A stretch of 64,000 bases of DNA from positions 883 through 64,882 of the forward strand of contig CAJULQ010000005.1 in NCBI GenBank assembly GCA_910587595.1. Direction: 5' to 3'. The notes under the pieces were generated by a model. The model searched no databases. It worked only from the letters and a program-made list of their open reading frames with translations, and was not told where the DNA came from. The stretch is from an uncultured Christensenellaceae bacterium. Lineage in GTDB: Bacteria > Bacillota > Clostridia > Christensenellales > Pumilibacteraceae. Positions 184 through 26,435 of this stretch are shown here, piece by piece; position 1 is the stretch's first letter; the number at the start of each line of letters is the position of its first letter. The translations under genes and the position numbers were made by a program.

Positions 184-651
184 ATGACGGCGGCAGAACG
201 GGCAGACAGCGTGTTCGGGTGCTATTGCGAGTATCTGGACGGCAAAGGCTTGCGGTATAAAAAAGACGCGGATGAGCGCAAGATCCTGTTGCAGATGACG
301 GGGGCGAATCTTCCCGTCACGCTTTTGTTGAGCGTGGAAGAGGACAACGAGCGAACGTTCGTGTTTGCCAAACTGCCGTTCGACGTATCGCGGGAAAAGC
401 GGGTGGATCTTGCCATGGCCGTTACGTATATCAATGCCGTGTTGGCTACGGGCACGTTTTGCGTAGACGCGGACGGCGGCTATGTCAGCTACGAATCCAA
501 CGAGCTGTATACGGGATTGCACGGCTTTACGGCCGCCTATGCCGAACGGGTGATTGTTTCGGCCTTTTCGGCGGTGGACATGTTTAACGACAAGCTGTTT
601 GCGGTAAACAAGGGATTGCTTACCGTAAAAGAGTTTGCGGCGCAAATGTAG
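184..651 (+). CDS. YbjN-like (T3SS-chaperone-like fold) protein, paralogue 1
   Basis: 155-aa ORF with RBS. The pattern resembles the YbjN family (conserved LPF..V..EK, N..L..G.F core). Paralogous to the next ORF. Confidence 0.6.
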   Translation: MTAAERADSVFGCYCEYLDGKGLRYKKDADERKILLQMTGANLPVTLLLSVEEDNERTFVFAKLPFDVSREKRVDLAMAVTYINAVLATGTFCVDADGGYVSYESNELYTGLHGFTAAYAERVIVSAFSAVDMFNDKLFAVNKGLLTVKEFAAQM

Positions 652-665
652 GAGGGATAACGGAA

Positions 666-1133
666 ATGACCGACGGCGAACGCGCCACGGCGGCTTACAA
701 CGCCATTGTGCGCTTTATGACGGAAGCAAAACTGCACTACGAAAGCAACGAGGACACGCGCGAGATCTTTGTGACCATCACGGGCGCAGACTTTCCCGTG
801 TCGTTGCTGTTTACGGTAAACGAGCCGCTGCAACGGGTGGAAACGTATTGCGAACTGCCCTTTGCCGTGCGCAAAGAAAAGGCGGTGGACATGGCCGTTG
901 CGTTGGCCGCCGTCAACGCGCGCATTGCCTACGGCAAGTTTTGTTTGTATTTCGATAAGGGATTGTGCACGTTTGAAAACACCGAGTATATTACCGATCT
1001 CGAAGGGTTTTCGGCCGCGTACGGCCGCGCGATCGTGGCGCCCGCCTATGCCATTGCAGACGAATACAACGACAAGCTGTATGCGCTCAACAAAGGGCTG
1101 TTGCCGCTGAAAGAGTTTGCCGCGAACGTTTGA
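666..1133 (+). CDS. YbjN-like protein, paralogue 2
   Basis: 155 aa, the same length as the upstream ORF. Clearly paralogous to it (shared ..NDKL[FY]A[VL]NKGLL..KEFAA.. C-terminus). Confidence 0.6.
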   Translation: MTDGERATAAYNAIVRFMTEAKLHYESNEDTREIFVTITGADFPVSLLFTVNEPLQRVETYCELPFAVRKEKAVDMAVALAAVNARIAYGKFCLYFDKGLCTFENTEYITDLEGFSAAYGRAIVAPAYAIADEYNDKLYALNKGLLPLKEFAANV

Positions 1134-1152
1134 CGGGCGGCAAACTTTTTTT
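1117..1152 (+). terminator. terminator/attenuator-like hairpin between the YbjN pair and the ESCRT-like genes
   Basis: 7-bp stem TTGCCGC/GCGGCAA (1117-1123 / 1137-1143), 13-nt loop, then T7 run (1146-1152). Overlaps the stop codon of the upstream CDS. Confidence 0.4.
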
Positions 1153-1251
1153 CACGGCGCAAAAATTTAATCGAATTTTTAACTTTCTTTTATGCGGGCG
1201 TAAAGTTTGCATTTTATAATGATTTGTCGAAAGAACGGGGAGGATCGCACG

Positions 1252-3072
1252 TTGTCGAAAAAGGATATCGAAAAGAAAATGGCGGTGCGACGCACGCGCA
1301 ACAGGCTGGCGTCTAATCTCGACACGTTGGAAGAGAACAAACAGCAATACATAGAAAAGGCCAAGGCGGCGCGCGCCAAGGGCGATAAGCACGTATACAG
1401 TTTGGCGCGGAGCGGGTTGGCCGCCACGGTGGCGCAAAGCAAACGCACGCGCGAAATGTTGTTGCACATAGACATCACCTCGCAAATGCGCGATACGGGC
1501 GCGGTCACCGAAGAATTTCTCACGGGCATGGAAACCATTTTCAAGCGCCTTTCCAAGATCAACAAAAGCGTGGATATCAAGAAGGCGCGAAAAGGCTTGC
1601 GCTCGGCCATCATGGGCATGGAAACGGTGCAAGCGCAATTGGACGGCATGCTGGAAGAATCGGAAGATACGTTTGCGGAATTGGCCGGGCAAACGGACAG
1701 CGTGACCGATAAAGAGATAGACCGCTTGCTCGGCCTCAGCGCCGCCATCGACGAAGAAGAGGCGGTGGGCGCGGCGGTAGACGAGATACTGCGCGAAAGC
1801 CAACCGAGCGAAACAAGCGAACGGGCGTTTGCGGCGGCAACGTCCGCGGGCGGCGCTACCCCCTTTTTCGACGATCGATCGGACGAACCCCGCACGGCAC
1901 CGCCGCAACGTTCGAGCGGGCGGCAATATGCATTGCCCGATATAGAACTGCTTAGCGAATACGGCCGCGACGAGAGCGCGCGCGAAACCAACGAATGCGC
2001 GCTCGAAGAGGACGCGGCGGCCGTGGAAAAGGTGTTGGCCGAGTTGGGCGTGCCGGCCAAAGTGTCCGAACGCGTAACAGGGCCTGCGTTCTCGCGGTTG
2101 GAAATGGCCATGCCGTCGGGGTTGTCGGTGCAAAAGATAGACGCGCTTTTATCCGACATTGCCATGCGGTTAGGTAAGCCCGCGCGGCTCGAAGTGCCAA
2201 TCCCCGGCAAAAACGCGTTCGGTATCGAGGTGCAAAACGTGCGCCGCGAAACGGTGGGGCTAAAAGAGTTGATCTTGTCCGAGGCGTTCGAAACGTCGGG
2301 CGACGGCATACGCTACTGCTTGGGCGCGGACATAGACCGAACGCCCGTTGTAAAAGACTTGACGGGCGCGCCGCACATGTTGGTGGCGGGGTGCACGGGC
2401 AGCGGCAAGAGTTGCTTTTTGCATGCCATGCTCGTGTCCATGCTGTATACATACACGCCCGACAAATTGCAGTTGGCCGTTGTGGATCTCAAGCGCGTGG
2501 AAATGGCGGCTTATAACGGTGTGCCCCATCTAACGGGCGGCAAAGTGGTAGACACGGACGAAGAGGCGCTCGCCTTGTTCGAACGGTTGGCCGACGAAAT
2601 GGAACGCCGATACACGCTTTTGTTGGGCGCGCATTGCCGCGATGTGAAAGAATACAACCGCACGGCGGCGCAACCGTTGCCGTATATCGTGGCGGTGGCC
2701 GACGAATACGCCGACATCTCCACGGGGCCGCTTTGCAAGCCGTTCGAGGCGGTGCTCAGAAAGCTCAGTCAAAAGTCGCGGGCGGCGGGCATCCATTTGG
2801 TGTTGGCCACCCAACGCCCCAGCGTAGACGTGGTGTCGGGCACGCTCAAAAGCAATTTCCCCACGCAAGCCGCTTTCCGCGTGGTGCGTAAAGAGGACAG
2901 CCGCACGGTGCTGGCGGGGCAAAGCGGCGCCGAACAGCTTTTGGGCAACGGCGATATGTTGTTTGCCGAGGCGGGCGTGGCGGGCTTGCGCCGACTGCAA
3001 GCGCCCTATGTTTCGAGCGAAGAAGTGCGGCGGGTGTGCGACTATTGGCGACGCGTCGCGGGGAGGGCGTAA
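1252..3072 (+). CDS. Snf7/ESCRT-III-like N-terminal domain fused to an FtsK/SpoIIIE-type DNA translocase motor (no TM segments, no gamma domain)
   Basis: ORF open from 1207. The likely start is TTG 1252, 8 nt after GGAGG, which matches the N-terminus of the paralogue at 3076. The N-terminal ~190 aa are paralogous to ORFs 3076 and 5493 (YSLARSGLAATVAQS vs YRLARSGLAMAVRQS). The C-terminal half carries FtsK motifs: YALPDIELL, GPAFSRLE, IPGKNAFGIEVQN, Walker A AGCTGSGKS, Walker B VAVADEYAD, AAGIHLVLATQRPSVDVVSG, GAEQLLGNGDMLF. Confidence 0.8.
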   Translation: MSKKDIEKKMAVRRTRNRLASNLDTLEENKQQYIEKAKAARAKGDKHVYSLARSGLAATVAQSKRTREMLLHIDITSQMRDTGAVTEEFLTGMETIFKRLSKINKSVDIKKARKGLRSAIMGMETVQAQLDGMLEESEDTFAELAGQTDSVTDKEIDRLLGLSAAIDEEEAVGAAVDEILRESQPSETSERAFAAATSAGGATPFFDDRSDEPRTAPPQRSSGRQYALPDIELLSEYGRDESARETNECALEEDAAAVEKVLAELGVPAKVSERVTGPAFSRLEMAMPSGLSVQKIDALLSDIAMRLGKPARLEVPIPGKNAFGIEVQNVRRETVGLKELILSEAFETSGDGIRYCLGADIDRTPVVKDLTGAPHMLVAGCTGSGKSCFLHAMLVSMLYTYTPDKLQLAVVDLKRVEMAAYNGVPHLTGGKVVDTDEEALALFERLADEMERRYTLLLGAHCRDVKEYNRTAAQPLPYIVAVADEYADISTGPLCKPFEAVLRKLSQKSRAAGIHLVLATQRPSVDVVSGTLKSNFPTQAAFRVVRKEDSRTVLAGQSGAEQLLGNGDMLFAEAGVAGLRRLQAPYVSSEEVRRVCDYWRRVAGRA

Positions 3073-3075
3073 CGC

Positions 3076-3648
3076 ATGGGACTTTTTAAGAGTGCGGAAG
3101 AAAAACGCATGGAAGAAAAGATGTTGGTAAAAAAGGCCGTGGGCAATATCAAGCGGTATATCGAGCGGTTGGAAGAGGCCAAGCAAAAGTATATAGAAGA
3201 GGCCAAGCAAGCCAAACAGCACGGCATACCGTCGCAATACCGTTTGGCGCGGAGCGGGTTGGCCATGGCGGTGCGACAAAGCCGCGTGGCGGAACAGTTG
3301 CTACTCAATCTCGAACTCAACCGCCAGACCAAAGACGCGGGCGAGGCCACGCGCGACTTTGTGGCGGGCATGCAAACGCTTGGCAAAGAGATCACGGCGC
3401 TCAACGGCCGCATACACGTGGCGCGGGCACAAAAGAACATGCGCACGGCGCTCAGCCAAAGCGGGCGCATGCAAGAAAATCTGGAAGGCTTTATGGAAGA
3501 GAGCGAGTTTTTGTTCGGCGAGGCGGCGAGCGACACGGGCTTGGAACGCGAGTTGGACGGCATGATCGACCGCGAGTTGCGGGCGGACGAGTCGGACACG
3601 GCGGCCATGGACGCCGAGATCGACGAAATGTTGGGACGGAATTTGTAA
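3076..3648 (+). CDS. Snf7/ESCRT-III-like protein (PspA/ESCRT-III superfamily)
   Basis: 190 aa, all-helical. It has an MGLFKS N-terminus, a basic helical-hairpin region, and an acidic C-terminus ending in the MIM-like DAEIDEMLGRNL. Starts 4 nt after the upstream stop. Confidence 0.6.
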   Translation: MGLFKSAEEKRMEEKMLVKKAVGNIKRYIERLEEAKQKYIEEAKQAKQHGIPSQYRLARSGLAMAVRQSRVAEQLLLNLELNRQTKDAGEATRDFVAGMQTLGKEITALNGRIHVARAQKNMRTALSQSGRMQENLEGFMEESEFLFGEAASDTGLERELDGMIDRELRADESDTAAMDAEIDEMLGRNL

Positions 3649-3692
3649 AGACCCCGCGCGGGGAGAACGGATAAGCAAGGAGAACGAGAAAA

Positions 3693-4454
3693 ATGGTGGA
3701 CTACAGAATAACCAAACGCGACGACGCAATGATCTGGAAGATCGACGTGCGCAAACCCGACAAGGACATGCGGCTCTTAGTAGACGACGGCTTGGTGGCG
3801 CTTGCCTTTGCGGACGGCACGATGTTGGGCGAATTTCGCGCGGGCGAGAAAAAGCTTTTCAACGAGGGCGGCAAAGCGGGCAAAGCGTATAAAAAAGCGC
3901 ATTTCGGCTTTTACGTTTTCAACCGCGAAAAGGCGGCGCCCGTTAAGTGGGGCGTGGGCAAAACGCCCGTGCCGTATGAAGACCGCAAGTTGGGCGGATT
4001 GGTGCTCAATGTGTGCGCCTACGGCCATTGCGACGTGATGATCCATGACGCGGTGCGACTGTGGGAAAAATTGCCCGCCGACTACACCGCCGACAACGTG
4101 GTGCAACCGCAAGAGATCGAGGCGTTTATCCAACGCGAAGTGATCGCGCGCATCACGCCCATACTTTCCAAAAAACTCAACGAGATAGGCGATTTCACGC
4201 GCGTGACGGCGGCGGCCGACACGCTGAGCAAGGGGCTGACGTATGCTTTGCCCGACCTCGAAAATTTGGGCTTGCACGTAGACAAAGCGGTGATCGAGGG
4301 CATAGACTTTACCGACGAATCCAAAGAGATCATTGAAAAGCACCGCGCCGGCAAGGTGGCCAAGATCGAATCGGAGATCGTGCGCGAGCAGTCGGAACAG
4401 ATCAAAAACATTCTTACGGCGCTGAACGCGGGCGACGGCAACAAGGAGGAATAA
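3693..4454 (+). CDS. SPFH/Band-7-like protein of the YdjI (COG4260) type
   Basis: 253 aa. The N-terminal beta-rich region (..DDAMIWK...LLVDDGLVALAF.DG..GEF..G...) and the ..VKWG.. segment resemble B. subtilis YdjI-family SPFH proteins. It lacks the C-terminal Zn ribbon. Confidence 0.55.
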   Translation: MVDYRITKRDDAMIWKIDVRKPDKDMRLLVDDGLVALAFADGTMLGEFRAGEKKLFNEGGKAGKAYKKAHFGFYVFNREKAAPVKWGVGKTPVPYEDRKLGGLVLNVCAYGHCDVMIHDAVRLWEKLPADYTADNVVQPQEIEAFIQREVIARITPILSKKLNEIGDFTRVTAAADTLSKGLTYALPDLENLGLHVDKAVIEGIDFTDESKEIIEKHRAGKVAKIESEIVREQSEQIKNILTALNAGDGNKEE

Positions 4455-4458
4455 AGCC

Positions 4459-5496
4459 ATGGCAACCTTTTCACCCGAATTCGTGCGCGAACAGTCGCGC
4501 CAGAACCTAAGCGACATGTCGCGGCTGGTAGACAGCTTGTATCAACGCGCCGACACCCCCGAAGCGCGCGAGGCGTTGGCCACGATGAGCAAAGCGGTTT
4601 CTTCGTTAAAGCCCGTGGGCAGCGTGCCGCAAGTGCTCGACGTGGAATCGCAGATCAAAAAAGTGCTTTCCGACTACAACGCCAATTTAGACGCCGACCG
4701 CGCCGAGGGCATAGACAAGGCCACCGTTTCCATTATTCGCGAGTTGGTGGCTACGCGCAAAAAAATGTGCAACTGCACGGTAGACGCCGACTTAAAACGC
4801 GGCTTTAAGTCGTATGCCAAAGCCAACAAGGGCACGGGCACCAAAAAGGAATTGAAGGCGGCGTATACGGTGCGCTACCAAGAGGCGATGGCCGAGGTGG
4901 ACGGCTACGTGCGCGAGGCCAAAACGCTCGACCAGTTGGTGAAAAGCTATCGACTGCGCACGCGCGAAATGGGCAAACAGCGCGAGCTGGACGAGCTGAA
5001 CAAAACGGTGCAGACGTTGGCCGCCCGTTACAAAAAGAGCACCGACCAAGCCGAGCGCGACCGCCTAAACGCCGAGTATCAAACCTTACTGCGCAAGAAG
5101 AACGCGCTGGACGCGGCGCTCATGGGTTACAAAGACGCCATGCGCAACGTGGAAACGGTGGAATCTTTGTTGAGTCAGCTTTCGGCACAAGCGGAAACGG
5201 CCGAGATCGACAGCATCTCCGCCGAGGATTTCACGGCGTTGGCGCAGTCGGTAACGGCGGGCATCAAAAAAGCGCGCGGCCGCAACGCCGCCATCGACGA
5301 GGCGTACGGCGCGGTGGAAAGCGCCAACCAAACCATGTTGCGTCGCGCGGGCGAGCGCATGCAAGCGGGCGAAACGTTAGACAGCGTGATCTTGGCCGAG
5401 CAAAACGCCGGCTTAGACGCCATAGAGGGCGTGGCCTCCGCGGCCGAGGCGCCCACCTTGGCGGCGCTGGCCGATAACCTCGACGGGGAGATGTGA
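4459..5496 (+). CDS. coiled-coil protein of unknown function
   Basis: 345 aa, long heptad-like Glu/Lys/Arg/Ala-rich helices, AAGGAGG RBS. Translationally coupled to both neighbours. No family recognised. Confidence 0.7.
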   Translation: MATFSPEFVREQSRQNLSDMSRLVDSLYQRADTPEAREALATMSKAVSSLKPVGSVPQVLDVESQIKKVLSDYNANLDADRAEGIDKATVSIIRELVATRKKMCNCTVDADLKRGFKSYAKANKGTGTKKELKAAYTVRYQEAMAEVDGYVREAKTLDQLVKSYRLRTREMGKQRELDELNKTVQTLAARYKKSTDQAERDRLNAEYQTLLRKKNALDAALMGYKDAMRNVETVESLLSQLSAQAETAEIDSISAEDFTALAQSVTAGIKKARGRNAAIDEAYGAVESANQTMLRRAGERMQAGETLDSVILAEQNAGLDAIEGVASAAEAPTLAALADNLDGEM

Positions 5497-5498
5497 AC

Positions 5499-6074
5499 AT
5501 GTTCGGAAGAAAGAAACGAAAACAGCCCGCCGTGGATCCGCGCGAGCAAGTGGAAAAAACGGTAGAGAATTTGGAGGCGTTCGTCAGAAAGGCCGAAACC
5601 AAGCGGCGCGAACTTCTTTCCAAAGCCAAAACGGCCAAAGCGCGCGGCGACAAAATGAGTTTCAATATGGCGGTCAACGCGCTGCGCATGGTCATGCAAC
5701 AGCAAAAGCAAGCCGAGCAAATGTCGCTCACCATGGGCATCGTAATGGACACGCGCGACGTGCAAGGCATGCTGGGCGAGTTTTTCACCAGCATGAAAAC
5801 GCTTTGCATGCAATTGGGCGAAGTACCCGATTTCAAAGAAATGCAAAAGGCGGCGTCCGAATTCAACCGCAACATGAACAAGATGAACGAACAAACCATG
5901 ATGATGGACGAGTTCATGACGGCCATGAGCGAAAGCATGGGTAATATGGATTTCGAGGGTGTTTCCACCAACGACGAGATCGGCAAGATGATCGAGCGCG
6001 AACTGGCCAACGAGCTGGACGCGGAAGAGATCGCCATCAACGAGCAGTTGGAGGCCGCCAAAAACAGACTGTAA
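5499..6074 (+). CDS. Snf7/ESCRT-III-like protein (CHMP2-like layout)
   Basis: The ORF track starts at GTG 5493. ATG 5499 gives MFGRKKRK, like the eukaryotic CHMP N-terminus (..LFGRRK). By eye the layout can be laid alongside my recollection of human CHMP2A along its length. Acidic C-terminus ends in the MIM1-like EEIAINEQLEAAKNRL. Confidence 0.65.
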   Translation: MFGRKKRKQPAVDPREQVEKTVENLEAFVRKAETKRRELLSKAKTAKARGDKMSFNMAVNALRMVMQQQKQAEQMSLTMGIVMDTRDVQGMLGEFFTSMKTLCMQLGEVPDFKEMQKAASEFNRNMNKMNEQTMMMDEFMTAMSESMGNMDFEGVSTNDEIGKMIERELANELDAEEIAINEQLEAAKNRL

Positions 6075-6107
6075 AAATAGTAGCAACGAGAGGGGACGCA
6101 AAAACAC

Positions 6108-7196
6108 ATGGCGAATAACCAAGCACTGCTGTACGACACCTACACCGATTATTACAACCGCGCCATGCGGGCCAAAAATGCGGGCGAAAACGACAAAGCG
6201 CGCAAGTATTTTCTATTGGCGGCCGAAACGTTGCGCGATCTGGCGCAAGTGAGCGAGGGCGAACTCAAAAAATCGCGCTACCGCACGGTGAAAAAGCTGA
6301 TTGCGGCGGCCGAAAGTTTGGCGCCGCAAGCGCGGGTGGCGCGGAGCGGTGCGGATCGCAGCGACAAAGCGGCGCGCGCGCCCGACGATCCCACCGACGA
6401 ATACGACCTCGACATAGCGTCGCCCAACGAAAAAGTATCGTTCGACGATATCATAGGGTTGCAAAATGCCAAAACGGCCATACGCCGCATGCTGATACAC
6501 CCGCTCAACAATCCGCAAGCCTACATAAAATACGGCCTAAAGCCGGGCGGCAACATTTTGTTGGAGGGGCCTCCCGGCACGGGCAAGACTACGTTTGCCA
6601 AGGCGGCGGCGTGCGAGATCCGCTTGCCCTTCGTGGTGGCGAACTGTTCGGCTTTGGTGGATTGCCTGATCGGCAACACCGCCAAAAATATCGACAAGCT
6701 GTTCGGCGAAGTGCGCCGCTTGGTGCGCAACCGCAAAACGGCGGCCATCGTGTTTTGCGACGAGTTCGACGAGATCGCCCGCTCGCGGGGCGGCGACAGC
6801 AAAACGGCCGACGAGGCGGTGCCCGCGCTCATTCGGCAGCTCGACGGGTTTAATACCGACAACGCCAACATCGTGGTGATCGCGGCCACCAACCGCAAAG
6901 ACACTTTAGATAAAGCGGTGCTCAGCCGATTTACAAAAAGCATATTTATTCCGCTACCTACCCGCGACGATCGCAAAAAGATCTTTGCGGCCAAGCTTAG
7001 GCGTATCGACGCCGAGGACTGCGCGGTCATCGATTTCGACGCGTTGGCCGACGAGAGCGAGGGCATGAGCGGGCGGGACATCACCCACGTGTGCGGCGAG
7101 TTCGTGAACGTGTTGGCCGAGCGCGACGCGGGGCTTACGCGAATAAACGGCACGCACACCGACGTTTTGCGCGAGTTTGTGGCGCAAAAACGCTGA
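6108..7196 (+). CDS. MIT-like domain + classical AAA ATPase (Vps4-like)
   Basis: The N-terminal ~75 aa form a helical, MIT-like segment (YYNRAMRAKNAGENDKARKYFLLAAETLRDLAQ). The AAA module has GPPGTGKT, IVFCDEFDEI, sensor-1 ATN and an SRH (LDKAVLSRF). The layout resembles Vps4. Confidence 0.7.
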   Translation: MANNQALLYDTYTDYYNRAMRAKNAGENDKARKYFLLAAETLRDLAQVSEGELKKSRYRTVKKLIAAAESLAPQARVARSGADRSDKAARAPDDPTDEYDLDIASPNEKVSFDDIIGLQNAKTAIRRMLIHPLNNPQAYIKYGLKPGGNILLEGPPGTGKTTFAKAAACEIRLPFVVANCSALVDCLIGNTAKNIDKLFGEVRRLVRNRKTAAIVFCDEFDEIARSRGGDSKTADEAVPALIRQLDGFNTDNANIVVIAATNRKDTLDKAVLSRFTKSIFIPLPTRDDRKKIFAAKLRRIDAEDCAVIDFDALADESEGMSGRDITHVCGEFVNVLAERDAGLTRINGTHTDVLREFVAQKR

Positions 7197-7209
7197 CCGA
7201 GAATAAGAC

Positions 7210-10200
7210 ATGATAGAATACGTTTCCAAAGCCTGTCCGTTTTGCGGCGGCACACAGATCGATCGCGCGGGCGACGCGTATATTTGCGCCTACTGTCTGC
7301 AACCGCTGGACGTTTCGAGCGGTGTTTTGAGCGACGGCTACAACAAGCTGGCGTCGTTTAACTTTGCGGGCGCGGCGGCGTTTTTCCGATCGATGACGGC
7401 GTCGGCGGGCGCGGAAGCGTTTTACGGCTTGTTTTTGGCCAAATATAAGATTGCGGAAAACAAGCAAGGTGGCCAAACGCGCCCCGTGGTGTTGGGATAT
7501 TATCCCGCCTCTTTCGAGCAAAACGAGGACTACCGACAAGTGCGGCGGCTTTGCGAGAGCAACGCGTCGCTGTTGACAAAATTGGATCGCATCGAACAGG
7601 CGCGGGCGCAGTCGACGGGATCGGAACCGCCCGTCGACGTGTTGGTGTTTTGCGACGGCGGGGGCAAAGAGGGGGCGCAACGTTTTGCCGACGCGGTCAG
7701 CGCGTGCGGACGAAAAGCGCTTGTATGCGAACAAACGCCCTCTTTGGCGGTGTTGCGCGCGGCGCAAGCGGCCTACGGCTTTTTTGACGACTTGCAAGCG
7801 ATAGAGCGATTGCTGTGCGGCAACGCGCGCTATTTTCCGCTGTTGGAAAACGCACGCACCGAGCTTACGGGCGCCAAGCGACCCATTAAAATAGAATGCT
7901 CTTTTGCCGTGCCAGACGCGCTCAAAGGGGGCGCGGCAACCTTTGCCGATATTTCCGCGGCGGCCGAAGTGCGGCGGTTGCACGCCCTATTGGGCGGCCG
8001 TACGGCCGTGCCCTCGTTGCCGTTGCGGTTTTTGTCTGCACCCGTCACCAAACGGCGGGCGAGCACGGCCCACGCGGCAACGGACGTAACGCGCTTGCAA
8101 CGGCTGCTATATAACGGCGATTTTGCGGGCGCTTTGCGGGAAACGGAACGGGCGGCCGACGGCACGGCGAGCGCGGCGGTGTTTTGGTGCGGCTTTTTGG
8201 CGTGCGCCCGCGCGCGCGACGACAGTGCGTTGGTAGCGTCGCCCAATGAGAACGCTTTCACGGCCGAGGCGCTCGGCTATGCGAGCGAGGCGTTGTATCG
8301 TTGCGCCGACCATGCCGCCGCGCAACCGTATTTGCGGGTGCTTACGGACACCGCGCTTCGTTGTATAGACCGCGGCTTTTTGGCATTTGCCGCCCGCGCC
8401 GTGGACACGGCGTTTTGCTACGACTATGCCGACGACTACGCCGACAAGCTGTTGGCGCGGTTGCATGCGGCGCACGGCGGACTGCCCGCCGCCGAGGCGT
8501 TCGCGCTGGGCAAAAAGATCATAGACAAACTTTCGGCCGAGCAAGACGCGTCGCGGTTGCGCTTTGCGTTGCAACTAACGGACGATGCCTTGCGTGCGGG
8601 CGAGTGGGCGCTGGCGGACGACTGCATAGAAAGCTTGCTCGACCGTTTCGGCACCGAAAAAGAATTGTATTTGCGCAAGTGGCTGATCTCCAACCGCGTG
8701 TGCGATACGGCCGCTTTGCGGGCGGTGCCCTATCCGCGCTTGGGCGAAAACTTTGCCTTTTGTTTGGCGGTGTTGCCGCCCGAATCGCGCGCAACGCTGC
8801 TGAAAGATACTTTTAACGGGTTGTGCCGCGCGGCGGCGGCCGACGGGTTCGCGCCGCGCGAGGCGGCTTTGGGCGAGGCGTTGGCGCTCGGCCGCGCCCT
8901 TTCGTTGTTTGCCGCGCCCGTGTTCGGCGCGACCGATTATTGCGCGGTGGGCGACCTTGCGTTGCGCGAAAAAGATTTCGAATCGGCGGCCGCCTATTTT
9001 GCGGGCGCTTTGCGGTGCGACGGCCGCAGTTACCGTGCGCATTGGGGCGCGCTGTGCGCCGCCTTGCAGTGCGAGAACGACCGCCGCTTGGAAGAATGCG
9101 CCACGCCTATCGACCGTGCGGGCGACTGTTTCGAAAACGCATATACCACGGCGTTGGGGCGCGACGAGGCGTTTATTGCGCGCATAGAGGGCGTGCGGGC
9201 GCGGCAACGCGAAACGGTGCGCAAAGACGGCCACGTGTTTCGCCCTTCCGATTTCGTGATCGACAACGGGTGCGTGCGAAAATATACGGGCGAGGGCACG
9301 CCTAACGTGTTCGTTTCGGGCGTTACGGCCATCGGCGACGGCGCGTTTCGCGGCGCGGACGCGGTTAGCGTGCTTGTGGACGAGGGTGTTACGGCTATCG
9401 GCGACGGCGCGTTTGCCCACAGCGCCTTGCGATCGTTGCGCTTGCCCGACAGTGTGGTGCGCTTGGGCGCCAATCCCTTTGTAGGGTGCGACGACTTGGT
9501 AAGTTTGACGGCGGCGGGCAAGATCCGCGTGGAAAACGGGGGCGTGTATCGGGGCGATCGCTTGGCGGCGTTCGTGCCCTCTTTGGCGCAAAGCGACGCG
9601 TTTATTGCGTTGCGTTCCACGTCTTCGATAGCCGACCGCGCTTTTTACGGGGTGCACGGCGGCAGCATAGATCTCGGCAACGCCGCGCTCGATCCGTGCG
9701 CGCTGTATGCGTGCGAGGGGGCGTCGATAAAGGCCGCTCGCGGTGCGGCCGCGGCGCGCACGGGCGAAAGCGTTACGGGGTGCGACCGCATAGAAAACGG
9801 CAAGATCGTGTCCGCCGGCAAGGCGCGCTGGGCGTCTTTATACGGCAACGGCGGCAACAACATGGCGGCGGACGGAAACGTGTTGCGCGACGGAAACGTG
9901 CGCGTGGAAAAGATCGCCGACACGCCCCGCTTGCAAAGCGGCATTTTGTGCAAAAACGATCGCCTCATTTACGCGCACGAAAACGCGCTGTATGTTGTGC
10001 CCGCGGCGGGCGGGCGCGCCGAGCGGTTGGCCGCGGTGGGCGAGTGCACGGGCACGGGCGTGCTGTGGAACGAGTATATCGTGCAACCGGTGGAAACGCA
10101 AACGGGCGCGGCGTTGTGCTTTGTGGCGCCCAACGGCAAAACGGAATACACGGTGTCTTTGCCCGAACGGCTCACCCGTCCGCTGTGCTTATCCGGCGAC

Positions 10201-10833
10201 ACGCTTTTGTGCGTGAGCGATCGGCTGGTCACGGCGGTGCATTTGCCCACGGGCAAAACGCGCGGCCGCGTCATGCCCGCGCGCGTTACGAGCGTGCCGT
10301 GCGCCGCGGGCAACGGGTTTGTGTTGGCCGACGAACAACATGTGTATGCGCTCGACACTCGCTTGCAAGGCGAGGCGGTGCACGCGTTAACGGGCGGCAA
10401 CTACGCGCAAGGGCAAGGCAAGATCTGCCGCAACCGTATCGTTGGCTACAAGGGCACGGCCTATTGGGTGGAGCGCACCGACGCCAACGTTTGTATCGGC
10501 ATGTATAACGGCGTTATGGCGGGCAAGGCGGCCGTGCCGCGGCGCATAGCCGACTTTTTGCAAACGCAACCCGTGCTGTACGGCGATACGCTGTACGCGG
10601 GCGGCAACACGCACGTGATCACGGCGCGCATTTCGTCGGTGTCGGGTGAATGGACGTTCGGTATAGGGGACGATGTGGGCGGCAAATACGCCGAGTTGGC
10701 GGTGATAGGCGGCGCGTGCTATATAAACGCCATGGAAGGCGCCTACGGGCGGCTTCGGTTGCGCGCCGTAGCGGACGGCAAGGCGATCGTAACGGATATA
10801 GACAGCGGAGGCATATATGCCGCAAGAATTTGA
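7210..10833 (+). CDS. large multidomain protein: N-terminal Zn-ribbon, helical (TPR-like) region, BspA-type LRRs, C-terminal beta-propeller-like region
   Basis: 1207 aa. CPFCGG...CAYC at the N-terminus. LRR_5-like repeats (VTAIGDGAFRGA..VTAIGDGAFAHS..LRLPDSVVRLGANPF). A Gly/Tyr/Val-rich, repetitive beta-strand region at the C-terminus. Confidence 0.6.
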   Translation: MIEYVSKACPFCGGTQIDRAGDAYICAYCLQPLDVSSGVLSDGYNKLASFNFAGAAAFFRSMTASAGAEAFYGLFLAKYKIAENKQGGQTRPVVLGYYPASFEQNEDYRQVRRLCESNASLLTKLDRIEQARAQSTGSEPPVDVLVFCDGGGKEGAQRFADAVSACGRKALVCEQTPSLAVLRAAQAAYGFFDDLQAIERLLCGNARYFPLLENARTELTGAKRPIKIECSFAVPDALKGGAATFADISAAAEVRRLHALLGGRTAVPSLPLRFLSAPVTKRRASTAHAATDVTRLQRLLYNGDFAGALRETERAADGTASAAVFWCGFLACARARDDSALVASPNENAFTAEALGYASEALYRCADHAAAQPYLRVLTDTALRCIDRGFLAFAARAVDTAFCYDYADDYADKLLARLHAAHGGLPAAEAFALGKKIIDKLSAEQDASRLRFALQLTDDALRAGEWALADDCIESLLDRFGTEKELYLRKWLISNRVCDTAALRAVPYPRLGENFAFCLAVLPPESRATLLKDTFNGLCRAAAADGFAPREAALGEALALGRALSLFAAPVFGATDYCAVGDLALREKDFESAAAYFAGALRCDGRSYRAHWGALCAALQCENDRRLEECATPIDRAGDCFENAYTTALGRDEAFIARIEGVRARQRETVRKDGHVFRPSDFVIDNGCVRKYTGEGTPNVFVSGVTAIGDGAFRGADAVSVLVDEGVTAIGDGAFAHSALRSLRLPDSVVRLGANPFVGCDDLVSLTAAGKIRVENGGVYRGDRLAAFVPSLAQSDAFIALRSTSSIADRAFYGVHGGSIDLGNAALDPCALYACEGASIKAARGAAAARTGESVTGCDRIENGKIVSAGKARWASLYGNGGNNMAADGNVLRDGNVRVEKIADTPRLQSGILCKNDRLIYAHENALYVVPAAGGRAERLAAVGECTGTGVLWNEYIVQPVETQTGAALCFVAPNGKTEYTVSLPERLTRPLCLSGDTLLCVSDRLVTAVHLPTGKTRGRVMPARVTSVPCAAGNGFVLADEQHVYALDTRLQGEAVHALTGGNYAQGQGKICRNRIVGYKGTAYWVERTDANVCIGMYNGVMAGKAAVPRRIADFLQTQPVLYGDTLYAGGNTHVITARISSVSGEWTFGIGDDVGGKYAELAVIGGACYINAMEGAYGRLRLRAVADGKAIVTDIDSGGIYAARI

Positions 10834-13150
10834 AATCAAATGCGTGATAAGCGAAGAAGGCGTGCCGGGCGGCTTGAAAATAGACGCCACGCCCAAAAGC
10901 TACGCCAAATACAAAGCGCTGTTCGAGGCGGCGCGCGAGGTGCGCAAGATCGACGATTTTCGCGAACTGCGCGTGCCCTTTTACCCCGCGTTTCGGCCGT
11001 TCGAGTACCAGCGCGAGGCAGTGCTCATGATGTTGTCGCGTTTTCGCGGCAAAGGCATTTTCGGCGATCAAGTGGGGCTTGGCAAAACGGTGGAAGTGGG
11101 CATGACGGTGGCCGAATACGCCGCCCGCGGCGCGGTGCAAAACGTGCTGTTGCTGTGCCCCGATAAATTGGATTTCCAGTGGGAACAAGAAATGCGCGAA
11201 AAATTTTCGACGCACTTTACCGCCCGCCACGTGCGCACGTTCCGCGAAATGGAAACGAGCCGAACAAACGGCGTTACCATGTTTTTGATGTCGTTTGGGG
11301 CGCTTTTATCCGAGATCCGCGGTTTGCGCGAACGTTTTTCGGACGACGTGCGCCGCGAGGAAGATTGGGTGCTTTCCGAGGGGTTCAAAGCAGAGCGCGC
11401 CGCCGACTACGAAAAGCGCAAACGCGCGTTAGCCAAAGATAAAAAATTGTGCGATCGGTTGGGCGCCGAGATCGACGCGCACTACTTGCAAGTGTTTGAT
11501 CGCTACAACCGTTTGTGGCCGTCTATCCACATGTTGGTGATCGACGAGGCGGACGCGTTGCTGTCGGTAGATCCTACCCGCACGTTGCAGATCTACACGG
11601 TGGCGGAGCACCTCGGCAAGCGCAGCGACTTGCCGTATAAAATACTTTTGTCGGCCACGCCCATTCGCCGACAGCTAGCCGACGTGTATAAACTCATGCG
11701 CATCGTGCGCCCCGAACAGTTTCGCGATAAGAACGATTTTATACGCAACTACTGTTTCGGCAAAGCGCGGCTCAATGATTTTTACGGCGAGGAGATCCGC
11801 CAGCTGAAAGGGCTGATCGATCAGCTGTTTACGCGCAACCGTTTAACGAGCGCCACGGTGCAACGGTCTTTGCAACCGCTCACGGTGGCCGAAGTGCTTG
11901 ACGTGAACCTCAAAAATTTTGCCGCGCCCGATATGGAAGAACGGGTGAAAGAGGCGGTGATCGACGGCGTGGCGTTCGGCGAGAGCGACCCCGCCCGCGT
12001 GCGCGCGCTGGTGCGTGAGAATATGGATGCCTATGCGCGCGATACGGGACAGTCTTGGACGGAATACGTGCGCACGGTGCTCATAGATCCCGACCGCTCG
12101 CCCGTGCGCATCACGCGGGAAAAAGACCGCGCGTTCGCGCAAAGTTTGTTGCAACGCGTGGGCGATCAAAAGGGCGCGGAGGCGGACGCCTTGCGGTTTA
12201 CGTGCGAGGACTACACCATTCCGTCTAAGCGCGGCCACCATATCCGCTACCGAGAGAGCAAGCGGGCGTATGCCGATAAAGACGCGTTGGAAGACGCGCT
12301 CACGGCGCGGTACATGCGCAAAGCGCGGCGCGAAAACGACTATGCGTATTCCGACGAGGGCACGATCGCCTACTACGATCGCGCGCAGATAGAGTGCGAG
12401 GGCAAGTATGCGGAGTTCGACCGCCTCGTTAACGAGTTGCTGATCGACCGCAAAGCGGTGGTGTTTTCGGCCGCCAAACAGCGCGACGTTCTCATGCGAT
12501 TGGTTAACGACGTGCAAAAGGGGCGGGCGCTGGCGGGCGGCGGCGACCATGCCGGTTATCTCAAATTTCGCAGCAACGACGCCGCCTATAAAAACGCGGT
12601 GTATTTTGCGGTGAACGGCGAAGAAAAGGGCTTTAACATGCAGTTTTGTTCGCACCTAATCATTACCGATCTGCCGCACGACCCCAACTTGGTAGAGCAG
12701 ATCGTGGGGCGCGTGTCGCGTATCGGTCAGCACGACCCCATGCACGTGTACGTGTTCACGCCCACGGGATCGCTCGAATACAGTTTGTATTTGTTTTACA
12801 ACGATATTTTGCATTTGTTTTCCGATTGGGACGGTGACAACACGTTTATCATCGGGGGCGCGGTGGCCGCCTTTTTGGAGGACGCGCCCGACGTGCACCG
12901 CGAACTGTTGCGCCGCTTGGGCGCGTCGCGCAACGCGTACGGCGAAACGGCCGAAGTGGGCTTTGCGCCATTGGCCGAGTATTTGTGGGAGCAATACCAA
13001 GCGGGATATGCCATCGGATCGTTCGAAGAATATGCGCCGTGGGCGGCGTTTTGCGAGCATGTGCGCGAGAGCATACGCTCGTTCAAAGAATTGGTAAAAG
13101 AGATGGGCGAGCAAGAAATGTTTGCCGCCGACGAACAAGAGTTGTTATAG
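10817..13150 (+). CDS. SNF2-family helicase/ATPase
   Basis: Motifs GDQVGLGKT (I), LLLCP (Ia), VIDEADAL (II), LLSATP (III) and QIVGRVSRIGQ (VI). Overlaps the upstream CDS by 17 nt. Confidence 0.85.
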   Translation: MPQEFEIKCVISEEGVPGGLKIDATPKSYAKYKALFEAAREVRKIDDFRELRVPFYPAFRPFEYQREAVLMMLSRFRGKGIFGDQVGLGKTVEVGMTVAEYAARGAVQNVLLLCPDKLDFQWEQEMREKFSTHFTARHVRTFREMETSRTNGVTMFLMSFGALLSEIRGLRERFSDDVRREEDWVLSEGFKAERAADYEKRKRALAKDKKLCDRLGAEIDAHYLQVFDRYNRLWPSIHMLVIDEADALLSVDPTRTLQIYTVAEHLGKRSDLPYKILLSATPIRRQLADVYKLMRIVRPEQFRDKNDFIRNYCFGKARLNDFYGEEIRQLKGLIDQLFTRNRLTSATVQRSLQPLTVAEVLDVNLKNFAAPDMEERVKEAVIDGVAFGESDPARVRALVRENMDAYARDTGQSWTEYVRTVLIDPDRSPVRITREKDRAFAQSLLQRVGDQKGAEADALRFTCEDYTIPSKRGHHIRYRESKRAYADKDALEDALTARYMRKARRENDYAYSDEGTIAYYDRAQIECEGKYAEFDRLVNELLIDRKAVVFSAAKQRDVLMRLVNDVQKGRALAGGGDHAGYLKFRSNDAAYKNAVYFAVNGEEKGFNMQFCSHLIITDLPHDPNLVEQIVGRVSRIGQHDPMHVYVFTPTGSLEYSLYLFYNDILHLFSDWDGDNTFIIGGAVAAFLEDAPDVHRELLRRLGASRNAYGETAEVGFAPLAEYLWEQYQAGYAIGSFEEYAPWAAFCEHVRESIRSFKELVKEMGEQEMFAADEQELL

Positions 13151-20595: not shown

Positions 20596-21972
20596 TTGGG
20601 GTATTCGGTAGACGCCGTGACCGCGCCGTATTTAGACGCAAAACACATGAAAGACGGCGCGCCCGTGTTTGAGGTGAATTGGTTGAAAGCGCAGATCGAA
20701 AAAGGAACGCACAATGCTACCAACACCACGAACACCGCAAGTTATTCGGGCAGTAACTATAACACCATGAAAAAGGCGTATGCCGACGAAATGCAATTCA
20801 GCAATTCGGTAACGGGCCAATGCGACGTTTTCACGGCGAGCTTGTCCTCGGGATACGAAACAAGCACAACTATGAACTATGCATCTACCGCCAGCCAATA
20901 CTACTTTCGGTTGCATTCGGAGTACGAAAAGTATACATATTCGTTGCCGGGTTACACGGCCGACAGAGCGCTGTACCAAGCAAATTTCGGCGCCAACTAC
21001 GTAAACGATATGGCAAAGCTTTTGAATAACCAAATGTCGGCGGACGCCTTTTTCGGGCGGTACGGTACGCACATCGTTATGAAAGGCATTTACGGCGGTA
21101 AGATCGAGTTGCACTACAGTGCGCTTTCCAATAAGATCGACGTAGGCAATACCTACAAAAACAAAATCGACAACGCGTTGAAAATCAGCAATACCGAGAT
21201 GGGTTCGGCAGACACCAAGTTTACGTTCGATTTGCAAACGGCGATCGGCAGATCTACCGAAAGCGTGTCCGAAATGTTCCGCGCAAAAGCGGTGGGCGGC
21301 AATGCGTTCGAGGGAGTCGGTATCCAAAATTTGAACAACCATTTTTCGTCTTGGATCCGTTCGGTGGGCGACAGACCCGCTTTGATCGGAGCGACGAGCG
21401 ACGGTTTGGTGCCGCTTTGGGACATTTTGCCCACGGCGTACGATACAAGCGCGAACGCTGCCAAAGTGAAAGCGCTGTATAACACGTATGCGCAAAATCA
21501 CTATCCCGATGCGGGCATAAACCGCAACTTTGCGGGGCTTACGGAAAACACCTACACCACCGAGCAAAAATTCATCAGATCTGCGGAATACACCATTAAG
21601 GATACCGGCAGTTATAAGCAACCTTACGATGAAATTAATTTGGATAGCTTGTCCGAATATTCGCATGCAATACTGCGTCATTACGGTTACAAGAATATGC
21701 AAGTTAATCTGACATTGGATATGAAACAAGTGGATAAAGGATACCAATGGTTTTTAATGTGTTTTGATGCGGGTTCTAAAGAAAATTCTCTTGTATTGGA
21801 ATACGAACATCCGTTTAGCAGTAAAAGTTATGTCACCGAACATATAACCATACCCACGATGTCTACGTCGCATTTTACCGATACGTTGGTGATCCGTTAC
21901 AGCGCATCCGGAAAATACGATGATACGTGGAAAAACAAAAATTTGTACGTATCCATAACGTACAGCAAATAA
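20596..21972 (+). CDS. MACPF (membrane-attack complex/perforin) domain protein, apparently separated from its signal peptide
   Basis: MACPF signature YGTHIVMKGIYGG, matching (Y/W)GTH(F/Y)x6GG apart from Ile at the F/Y position. The frame is open from 20512, and the ORF-track start at 20596 is an arbitrary internal Met. Confidence 0.7.
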   Translation: MGYSVDAVTAPYLDAKHMKDGAPVFEVNWLKAQIEKGTHNATNTTNTASYSGSNYNTMKKAYADEMQFSNSVTGQCDVFTASLSSGYETSTTMNYASTASQYYFRLHSEYEKYTYSLPGYTADRALYQANFGANYVNDMAKLLNNQMSADAFFGRYGTHIVMKGIYGGKIELHYSALSNKIDVGNTYKNKIDNALKISNTEMGSADTKFTFDLQTAIGRSTESVSEMFRAKAVGGNAFEGVGIQNLNNHFSSWIRSVGDRPALIGATSDGLVPLWDILPTAYDTSANAAKVKALYNTYAQNHYPDAGINRNFAGLTENTYTTEQKFIRSAEYTIKDTGSYKQPYDEINLDSLSEYSHAILRHYGYKNMQVNLTLDMKQVDKGYQWFLMCFDAGSKENSLVLEYEHPFSSKSYVTEHITIPTMSTSHFTDTLVIRYSASGKYDDTWKNKNLYVSITYSK

Positions 21973-22002
21973 ACAAAAAACGGCCCGTTGGGAGGTAAAG
22001 GT

Positions 22003-24177: not shown

Positions 24178-24235
24178 AGTAAGGCGACTATACAACGCAT
24201 TGCGTGCAACTAATACGATACGATGAGGGCATGCC

Positions 24236-26422: not shown

Positions 26423-26435
26423 GGAGAAAACTATA

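Follow-up and report, generated by a model that had tools for sequence, protein, structure and literature searches.

A Clostridia gene row pairing probable ESCRT-III relatives with an AAA ATPase that carries a predicted MIT-like domain

Organization of the gene row

We analyzed a 64,000-nucleotide stretch of DNA from an uncultured Christensenellaceae bacterium (GenBank assembly GCA_910587595.1, contig CAJULQ010000005.1), hereafter the window, in which a tight row of genes on the + strand (184-13150) encodes three paralogous Snf7-like proteins or domains and an AAA ATPase with an MIT-like N-terminus (Table 1). The row was defined from the list of open reading frames and from Pfam, NCBIfam, and PADLOC scans. 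Two of the paralogues, SnfA and SnfB, are small stand-alone proteins, and the third is fused to an FtsK translocase module. A first-pass annotation had proposed that the C-terminal tails of the two small proteins approximate the MIM1 motif and are matched to an MIT-like domain on the ATPase; the tails and the ATPase N-terminus that it quoted occur in the translations exactly where it placed them. It had omitted the third paralogue, fused to FtsK at 1207-3072.

Table 1 Features of the gene row and of its encoded proteins.
Feature	Position	Strand	Evidence
Two tandem YbjN-like paralogues	184-651, 666-1133	+	Pfam YbjN E 6.3e-7 for the first
ESCRT-III-like N-terminal domain fused to an FtsK alpha/beta translocase module, 621 aa	1207-3072	+	
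FtsK fusion, alpha5-like TDKEIDRLLGL	1705-1737	+	
FtsK fusion, second helix AVGAAVDEILRES	1762-1800	+	
SnfA, probable ESCRT-III paralogue, 190 aa, N-terminal MGLFKS motif	3076-3648	+	
SnfA, alpha5-like acidic motif LERELDGMIDREL	3541-3579	+	
SnfA, terminal helix AAMDAEIDEMLGRNL, degenerate MIM1-like element, net charge -3	3601-3645	+	
SPFH/Band_7_1 protein, 253 aa	3693-4454	+	Pfam Band_7_1 E 2.1e-8
Predicted coiled-coil protein, 345 aa, no family	4459-5496	+	No significant Pfam match
SnfB, probable ESCRT-III paralogue, 191 aa from ATG 5499, N-terminal MFGRKKRK	5499-6074	+	
SnfB, alpha5-like motif NDEIGKMIEREL	5970-6005	+	
SnfB, terminal helix EEIAINEQLEAAKNRL, loose MIM1 match, net charge -2	6024-6071	+	
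AAA ATPase, 362 aa, starts MANNQALLYDTYTDYYNRAMRAKNAGENDKARKYFLLAAETLRDLAQVSEGELKKSRYRTVKKLIAAAESL	6108-7196	+	
ATPase, MIT-like three-helix bundle, aa 2-71	6111-6320	+	AlphaFold2, Foldseek, profile
ATPase, disordered linker (~aa 74-100) and single classical AAA cassette	6321-7196	+	Pfam AAA 5.3e-33
ATPase, Walker A GPPGTGKT	6567-6590	+	
ATPase, pore loop 1 DCLIGNT	6660-6680	+	
ATPase, Walker B DEFDE	6750-6773	+	
ATPase, second region of homology (SRH) DKAVLSRFTKSIFIPLP	6909-6959	+	
LRR_5 protein, 1207 aa, N-terminal Cys-rich stretch, probable accessory	7210-10833	+	Pfam LRR_5
SNF2 helicase, probable accessory	10817-13150	+	Pfam SNF2-rel_dom

The short intergenic spacing is consistent with a single operon. 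Only a few bases separate the genes at 3072/3076 and 4454/4459, and an overlap at 5493/5496 would exist only if SnfB began at GTG 5493; the ATG start at 5499 agrees with the public annotation. SnfB and the ATPase lie in one reading frame, separated by 33 nucleotides that hold three stop codons, with a purine-rich GAGAGGGG before the ATPase start. A protein identical to SnfA is annotated as "hypothetical" in a Clostridia bacterium metagenome-assembled genome.

Relationship of the small proteins to ESCRT-III

BLASTP shows mutual homology among SnfA, SnfB, and the N-terminus of the FtsK-like protein, the fusion matching SnfA orthologues at ~1e-27. All three share one layout: behind a hydrophobic/basic N-terminus come a putative helical core, an acidic alpha5-like motif (D-E-I-D-x-L-I), a short linker that is also acidic, and an amphipathic helix at the end. 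The short N-termini of SnfA (MGLFKS) and SnfB (MFGRKKRK) resemble MGLFGK, with which CHMP3 begins, and their sequences hint at possible membrane binding.

Matches of SnfA (E 0.034 over 18-171) and SnfB (E 0.034 over 17-179) to Pfam Snf7 cover the whole model in the same register. Taken alone, the window proteins score 14.2 bits and stay below the gathering score, which is 27.3. A family profile that combines the three paralogue groups retrieved 542 clusters at E <= 1e-3, of which 281 reach E <= 1e-10, among 1.84 billion representatives. Most of these clusters are 185-230 aa long, and ~25 of the 150 best representatives (about one in six) are N-terminal fusions of 430-940 aa. The family hidden Markov model (HMM) scored 187.6 bits on SnfA, 150.6 bits on SnfB, and 169 bits on the FtsK fusion (aa 17-197). 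When 18 members were scanned against Pfam, Snf7 was the top family in 15 (best E 1.8e-5), and PspA_IM30 was not among the families listed for any of them.

The same signal was obtained from structures and from eukaryotic sequences. A 105-sequence profile searched against the PDB found CHMP2A (E 7.6e-6 over 136 columns) and CHMP3 (0.0034), followed by CHMP1B, CdvB, and CHMP1A, and did not find PspA or Vipp1 among PDB sequences; the alignment to CHMP2A and CHMP3 covers the entire core. Comparison by hhalign with six eukaryotic ESCRT-III sequences, checked with Pfam (60-198 bits), gave a probability of 96.4% and an E value of 1.4e-9. As a control, CHMP2A alone gave E 3.1e-7 over 133 columns, whereas Escherichia coli PspA alone gave E 0.083 over 20 columns. 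A narrow SnfA profile found no ESCRT-III in the PDB and gave only weak hhalign comparisons with single sequences, which improved only with the 105-sequence family alignment.

Hence, SnfA, SnfB, and the N-terminus of the FtsK fusion are with high probability ESCRT-III proteins, and the assignment of the two small proteins to real ESCRT-III/Snf7 relatives holds through the Pfam scans of members, the family profile, hhalign, and the PspA control. By their sequence profiles the paralogues are placed on the Snf7 branch (CHMP2/3-like), with the PspA branch excluded. A PspA/Vipp1 identity was considered for the small proteins and rejected, as the profile searches and the PspA control were negative.

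An MIT-like domain at the N-terminus of the ATPase

An AlphaFold2 model of the full-length ATPase, built on a 62-sequence alignment, places three helices at residues 2-24, 28-48, and 52-71, with a predicted local distance difference test score (pLDDT) above 90. The second run, a model of residues 1-82 alone, agrees with it (mean pLDDT 89.7); over the two runs the helices span about 2-24, 28-47, and 51-71. The top three Foldseek matches in the PDB were all MIT domains of Sulfolobus Vps4/CdvC (2w2u chains A and B, E 0.012-0.013, and 2v6y, 0.049), and the next MIT domains were those of VPS4B, VPS4A, MITD1, NRBF2, and spartin. The VPS4A MIT domain superposes with a root-mean-square deviation of 1.2-1.4 Å over 65-66 residues (TM-score 0.76-0.80), and the VPS4A/B MIT domains with 1.2-1.8 Å over ~65 residues.

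Searched against the PDB, a 32-sequence profile of the domain returned designed TPR proteins first, because their repeats inflate the score, and then one TPR (ERCC6L, 5jno_B). The natural single-domain matches that followed were 2w2u and 2v6y (E ~0.01), a chitin synthase 1 chain (2mpk, 0.023), and CdvC (4lcb, 0.08). Pfam reported MIT in five of the 32 N-terminal homologues (best 5.1e-5) and TPR_2 in ten, and a phmmer search of the N-terminal 101 aa against the PDB yielded nothing useful. By eye, the family pattern of the N-terminus, A..A...G[DN]...A...[FY]..AA......A ... R...A.KL...AE.L, can be aligned with the MIT sequence of VPS4; in our manual alignment, I65 and E69 would correspond to L64 and E68 of VPS4A. 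The N-terminus of the ATPase is thus predicted to be an MIT-like three-helix bundle, as first proposed from its alanine and leucine spacing: the AlphaFold2 model is such a bundle, and the natural matches in both the Foldseek and the profile searches are led by archaeal Vps4 MIT domains.

The AAA module is not specifically Vps4-like

The linker behind the bundle has a pLDDT below 50 at residues 74-85 in the AlphaFold2 model. In the cassette, sensor 1 (TN) and one SRH arginine, R274 (LSRF), are present; Vps4 has RRRF where this ATPase has a single arginine. NCBIfam models scored 161 bits for PAN, 148 for FtsH, 147 for CdvC (residues 5-329), and 144 for CDC48. In three of eight related ATPases, CdvC was the top model, with end-to-end alignment (130-206 bits). 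PDB searches with the whole ATPase, by sequence and by fold, were led by Cdc48/p97, AFG3L2, Msp1, and PAN; the full-length Foldseek search is dominated by the AAA module and is uninformative for the N-terminus. A beta-domain insertion in the small AAA subdomain is a defining trait of Vps4. It was not found in the ATPase model, which is purely helical beyond residue 286, without any inserted strand. The best PADLOC match of the AAA module was the anti-phage ATPase IetA.

In its predicted architecture (MIT-like domain, linker, single AAA cassette), the ATPase is Vps4/CdvC-like. It is not a Vps4 orthologue, however, since its AAA module stands at least as near to Cdc48, PAN, or FtsH as to Vps4/CdvC.

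The alpha5 motif and the C-terminal tails

The alpha5-like motif, which the first-pass annotation had omitted, lies upstream of the terminal helix and is the best conserved part of the C-terminus. In SnfA, its residues E159, D161, I164, and R166 are invariant in 20 orthologues. As the PDB profile alignment places this motif on EIDRIL of CHMP3, we read it as the ESCRT-III alpha5 and not as a MIM. The acidic linker between alpha5 and the terminal helix is 8-12 residues long and variable in sequence among orthologues, compared with ~35 aa in CHMP3.

The terminal helix reads xMDAEIDALLKK in the SnfA orthologues and EEIAI[DN][KR][EQ]LExAK in 14 SnfB orthologues, in the latter with a basic residue one position early for MIM1. 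In these alignments the terminal motifs are conserved among orthologues, and the tails are acidic as described, with net charges of -3 and -2. Helix 3 of the MIT-like domain has a net charge of +4, giving charge complementarity with the tails of both SnfA (-3) and SnfB (-2).

We then examined the tails of the whole family. The MIM1 core [LIVM]xx[KR][LIVM]xx[LIVM] is found in the last 32 aa of 48 of the 109 stand-alone representatives, compared with 3.4% of body windows and with a mean of 4.2 (maximum 10) for shuffled tails. When the site was chosen blind to charge, as the last one with hydrophobic residues at 0/+4/+7 (present in 86 of 105 sequences), D/E occupied position -3 in 58% of cases and K/R positions +3 in 50% (background 13%) and +8 in 40%. 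The family consensus that results is D-x-[DE]-I-[DE]-x-[KR]-L-x-x-L-[KR], which is the same as (D/E)xxLxxRLxxL(K/R), the form in which the first-pass annotation gave MIM1. Tails with the MIM1 pattern include DEDIERRLQEIR (L011), DKSIERKLDKLK (L013), and SEIDRRLANLR (fusion P0228), and the Snf7-like proteins of the canonical pairs in L013 and L011 end in ...LDKSIERKLDKLKN and ...DEDIERRLQEIRGRR, respectively.

Conserved linkage of the Snf7-like and AAA genes

Ten further loci (L001, L002, L004/L005, L007, L008, L011, L012, L013, L014, and L015), of which at least eight are independent, place a Snf7-like gene next to an AAA gene whose N-terminus follows the same pattern, and this adjacency is seen in every related locus with sufficient flank. 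The view that the pair are not chance neighbors is thus supported by ten further loci with different flanks. Among the homologues, one carries the annotation of a Roseburia sp. metagenome-assembled genome.

Two loci, L001 and L002, keep the gene order of the window. A minimal cassette consisting of the FtsK fusion, a Snf7-like gene, and the AAA gene lies between plsY and other genes in L004/L005 and L007, where in L007 spoIVA follows directly. Longer arrangements are found in L011 (SPFH, a 237-aa protein, Snf7-like, AAA, TIR-FHA, PP2C, kinase), L013 (trypsin, SPFH, coiled-coil, Snf7-like, AAA, TIR, LRR giant, and a second Snf7-like gene), and L014 (helix-turn-helix (HTH), trypsin, SPFH, coiled-coil, Snf7-like, AAA, Snf7-like), so that a Band_7_1 gene stands beside the Snf7-like and AAA genes in all three. 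L015 reads AAA, Snf7-like, AAA, and a downstream fragment in L012 opens with the MIT-like pattern. The recurrence of this partner set in varied orders argues for one functional system. The arrangement in the window resembles a merger of the minimal cassette with a second module (SPFH, coiled-coil, Snf7, and LRR), a single ATPase being shared. Around the Snf7-AAA pairs, LRR_5 giants, TIR domains, a trypsin-like protease, HTH, and FHA/PP2C/kinase genes give a defense or conflict flavor.

In two related loci, L006 (6006-11140) and L009 (3028-8121), the family HMM found no Snf7-like gene near the related AAA gene. Their ATPases are 47-62% identical in the AAA module and have a similar helical N-terminus, and the genes before them encode an HTH protein, a trypsin-like protease, a Band_7 protein (L006) or a 290-aa unassigned protein (L009), and an unassigned protein of ~500 aa. 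As these loci lack a recognizable Snf7-like gene, the ATPase can possibly serve other clients, and L006 and L009 may represent a sister system with a different client.

A genome scan with the ATPase as query returned only two close loci, and a metagenome scan with the SnfA alignment one short locus. The SnfA alignment had no match in a viral scan, nor did tblastn with SnfA in plasmid and phage collections. An origin from plasmids or phages was therefore rejected, since SnfA had no match there and the related loci lie between der/plsY and spoIVA or other chromosomal genes.

FtsK fusions

The ESCRT-III-like domain of the FtsK fusion spans ~aa 17-197, and the true start is likely near 1252. Downstream, Pfam recognizes FtsK_alpha (6.3e-16) and FtsK_SpoIIIE (3.5e-41), and the Walker A motif GCTGSGKS lies at 2389-2412. 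The translocase seems to lack the usual membrane anchor. Corresponding fusions are encoded in L001 (5096-6958), L002 (3869-5770), L004 (8095-9426), L007 (7912-9435), and L008 (7418-9991). In L008, FtsK is replaced as the fusion partner by a RuvB-like AAA with a long C-terminal extension. By eye, the FtsK Walker A of L004 appears degenerate (VCGEGSERAAF).

Other genes in the window

The two YbjN-like proteins at the head of the row are ~40% identical to each other, and the pair keeps its position in L001 and L002. In L013 and L014, unassigned proteins of a size similar to that of the 345-aa coiled-coil protein occupy the corresponding place, after the SPFH gene and before the Snf7-like gene. 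This coiled-coil protein was considered as a fourth ESCRT-III paralogue and rejected, since the family HMM does not detect it.

The LRR_5 protein and the SNF2 helicase are both kept in L001 and L002, and LRR_5 giants are seen again in L004, L006, and L013. The Cys-rich stretch of the LRR_5 protein resembles a zinc ribbon by eye. The SNF2 helicase gene starts within the end of the LRR_5 gene, overlapping it by 17 nucleotides, and its best PADLOC/NCBIfam matches are BrxH-, DrmD-, and DpdE-like.

Farther downstream lies a low-GC stretch (20596-28631), with a GC content of 0.45-0.51 compared with 0.54-0.64 over the initial 18 kb of the window. Its first gene encodes a protein with a MACPF/perforin domain (20596-21972), and behind it come three paralogues in which an ABC ATPase is fused to an FtsX permease (21988-24177, 24236-26422, and 26436-28631). 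Together, these genes might encode a pore-forming toxin and pumps for its export or for immunity.

Comparison with known systems

The eukaryotic and Asgard Vps2/24/46-Vps4 system, which relies on MIM1-MIT recognition, is among the closest known systems, and the best PDB matches of the family (CHMP2A, CHMP3, and CHMP1B) belong to that class. The likeness extends to an MGLF-type N-terminus, the aligned core, the acidic alpha5-like motif, and the terminal amphipathic helix, and the ATPase shares with Vps4 the arrangement of MIT-like domain, linker, and single AAA cassette. In contrast, the host is a bacterium (Clostridia), and the basic residue of MIM1 is missing from the tails in the window. The ATPase model contains no beta-domain, its AAA module is not specifically Vps4-like, and there is no ESCRT-I/II; the partners are instead the FtsK fusion, SPFH, coiled-coil, LRR giant, and SNF2 helicase proteins.

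The crenarchaeal Cdv system likewise pairs ESCRT-III paralogues with an MIT-AAA ATPase in a prokaryotic operon. The MIT domain of Sulfolobus Vps4 is the nearest solved structure to the N-terminal domain in the window, and the CdvC model, which can be aligned from end to end, ranks first for three related ATPases. However, the scores (130-206 bits) fall far short of the CdvC equivalog cut-off of 650, there is no CdvA, and nothing here points to a function in cell division. In eukaryotes and Asgard archaea, MIM1 characterizes the Vps2/24/46 class, whereas crenarchaeal CdvB lacks it and uses a proline-rich MIM2 (PMC7240154); the bacterial family differs from CdvB in its helical MIM1-like tail.

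The SPFH/Band-7 partner recalls those described at PspA loci (PMC10936438; PMC7619361). Unlike PspA and Vipp1, the window family lies by profile on the Snf7 branch with no PspA/Vipp1 profile match, and its ATPase partner is an MIT-type classical AAA and not the sigma-54 activator PspF. A PSP survey described occasional bacterial Snf7 or PspA genes beside classical AAA+ ATPases, VPS4-like ATPases transferred to bacteria in which the Snf7 partner was replaced by a TPR+6TM protein, and membrane-anchored (SIG+TM) Snf7 proteins paired with a double AAA protein in which the N-terminal AAA copy is inactive (PMC11237479). None of these cases combines a soluble Snf7 bearing a MIM1-like tail with a single MIT-AAA, FtsK fusions, and Clostridia, and neither FtsK nor Clostridia occurs in the supplement of that survey (PMC11237479).

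A proposed model and the alternatives

A functional partnership of some kind between the ESCRT-III proteins and the ATPase is, in our view, very likely. More specifically, we lean towards the row being the core of a bacterial ESCRT-III/Vps4-type machine in which the terminal helices recruit the ATPase through its MIT-like domain. By analogy with Vps4/CdvC, from which polymerization, the contact of tail and MIT-like domain, and disassembly are inferred, the ESCRT-III subunits would copolymerize on a membrane. Their exposed acidic terminal helices, which carry the MIM1 pattern in most of the family and a degenerate form of it here, would bind the basic MIT-like domain, and the bound hexameric ATPase would pull subunits through its pore, so that the polymer is remodeled or disassembled. 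More speculatively, the fused FtsK motor might bring DNA translocation to the polymer, and the SPFH protein might act as scaffold for a patch of membrane. Equally speculative are a conflict or stress context, suggested by the neighboring TIR, protease, LRR, SNF2, and kinase genes, and a link to sporulation, suggested by the der/plsY/spoIVA neighborhood of the minimal form.

Several observations weigh against recruitment through the tails by a Vps4-type ATPase. All three tails in the window lack the basic residue at +3 and therefore do not match the MIM1 core: SnfA reads I-D-E-M-L-G-R-N, with Met at +3 instead of Arg and Asn in place of a hydrophobic residue at +7, SnfB reads I-N-E-Q-L-E-A-A-K, with Gln at +3 and Ala at +7, and the FtsK fusion reads V-G-A-A-V-D-E-I, with no K/R at +3. 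Any amphipathic helix gives i/i+4/i+7 hydrophobic residues and flanking charges, although the family-wide enrichment of K/R at +3 exceeds that. In the ATPase, pore loop 1 is CLIG with Leu, where the consensus of the 62-sequence family is DSYIGxT with Tyr; this aromatic residue is lost in the same lineage in which all three tails lost the MIM1 basic residue. The CdvC score of 147 bits lies far below the cut-off of 650, and the AAA module is not specifically Vps4-like. The N-terminus of the window ATPase itself has only a weak Pfam TPR_2 match (E 0.045) and none to MIT, and no Foldseek match of the 82-aa domain reached E 0.001; in the ranking, MIT domains alternate with ribosomal protein S20, FliS, and designed bundles. 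A helical bundle of 70 residues can give no more than this.

The initial interpretation is hence supported in part. Its statement that the tails approximate MIM1 holds family-wide (core in 48/109; K/R at +3 in 50% vs 13%) but only in the loosest sense for the two tails from which it was drawn, which, like that of the FtsK fusion, have no K/R at +3 (0/3), and by sequence comparison MIM1-likeness is a family trait that appears to have degenerated in the lineage of the window.

The ATPase might instead act on ESCRT-III through another element, such as alpha5 or another groove or mode of the MIT-like domain, with the terminal helix serving in autoinhibition or polymer packing. Conservation is indeed stricter in the alpha5-like motif, with E159, D161, I164, and R166 invariant, than in the terminal helix. 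The MIM1 core is missing from the window tails, and at least seven MIT-MIM binding modes that use either groove are known (PMC9477494). Furthermore, the closest structural match, the Sulfolobus Vps4 MIT domain, binds a proline-rich MIM2 and not a helix (2w2u; PMC7240154). However, a proline-rich MIM2-like stretch is not evident among the family tails listed, while the family terminal helix carries the MIM1 charge pattern (K/R at +3 50% vs 13%, D/E at -3 58%), and we regard this alternative as unlikely. Less probable still is that the N-terminal domain is a generic TPR-like adaptor for another partner encoded in the operon (SPFH, coiled-coil, LRR giant, TIR, or protease), which the AAA ATPase would unfold or regulate, leaving the ESCRT-III tails irrelevant. 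TPR_2 outnumbers MIT among the N-terminal homologues (10/32 vs 5/32), designed TPR proteins top the profile search, the related AAA genes of L006 and L009 have no recognizable Snf7-like gene nearby, and IetA is the best PADLOC match of the AAA module. Against this stand the minimal cassette (L004, L005, and L007), which has no SPFH, LRR, or TIR genes, and the best natural structural and profile matches, which are MIT domains.

Finally, generic coiled-coil proteins could lie by coincidence beside an unrelated housekeeping AAA gene, as might be suggested by the sub-threshold Snf7 matches in the window (14.2 bits vs 27.3) and by the narrow profile, which finds nothing in the PDB. Since the broad-profile and profile-profile results are ESCRT-III-specific, with PspA as negative control, and the adjacency is kept in ten further loci with differing flanks and gene orders, coincidence is very improbable. 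We thus retain recruitment of the ATPase through the terminal helices as the working model.

Implications

According to a 2025 review, bacteria appear to have no Vps4-like ATPase (PMC7619361). Our full-text literature search, with most subscription journals outside its coverage, found no description of a bacterial Snf7/MIT-AAA system. A large bacterial family on the Snf7 branch, with an MIT-type AAA neighbor and a MIM1-like tail, would change this picture. Tentatively, and with somewhat more doubt than confidence, we suggest a widespread Clostridia ESCRT-III/Vps4-type machine of more than 500 clusters that uses a MIM1-MIT code, includes many FtsK fusions, and has a pre-archaeal origin or was transferred between Asgard-like archaea and Firmicutes.

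If this is true, the MIM1-MIT code reported for the eukaryotic and Asgard Vps2/24/46 class would be at work in Clostridia, and FtsK-fused ESCRT-III subunits would couple membrane remodeling to the clearance or pumping of DNA. The partnership of ESCRT-III with an unfoldase would then predate the archaeal ancestor or have moved between Asgard-like archaea and Firmicutes, and the origin of ESCRT-III/Vps4 coupling would become testable through the phylogeny of both partners. The three-gene minimal form (FtsK fusion, Snf7-like, AAA) would offer a simple model system, and roles in sporulation, membrane repair, or anti-phage conflict may be indicated by the fusions to FtsK, by the SPFH partners, and by the neighboring TIR, protease, and LRR genes.

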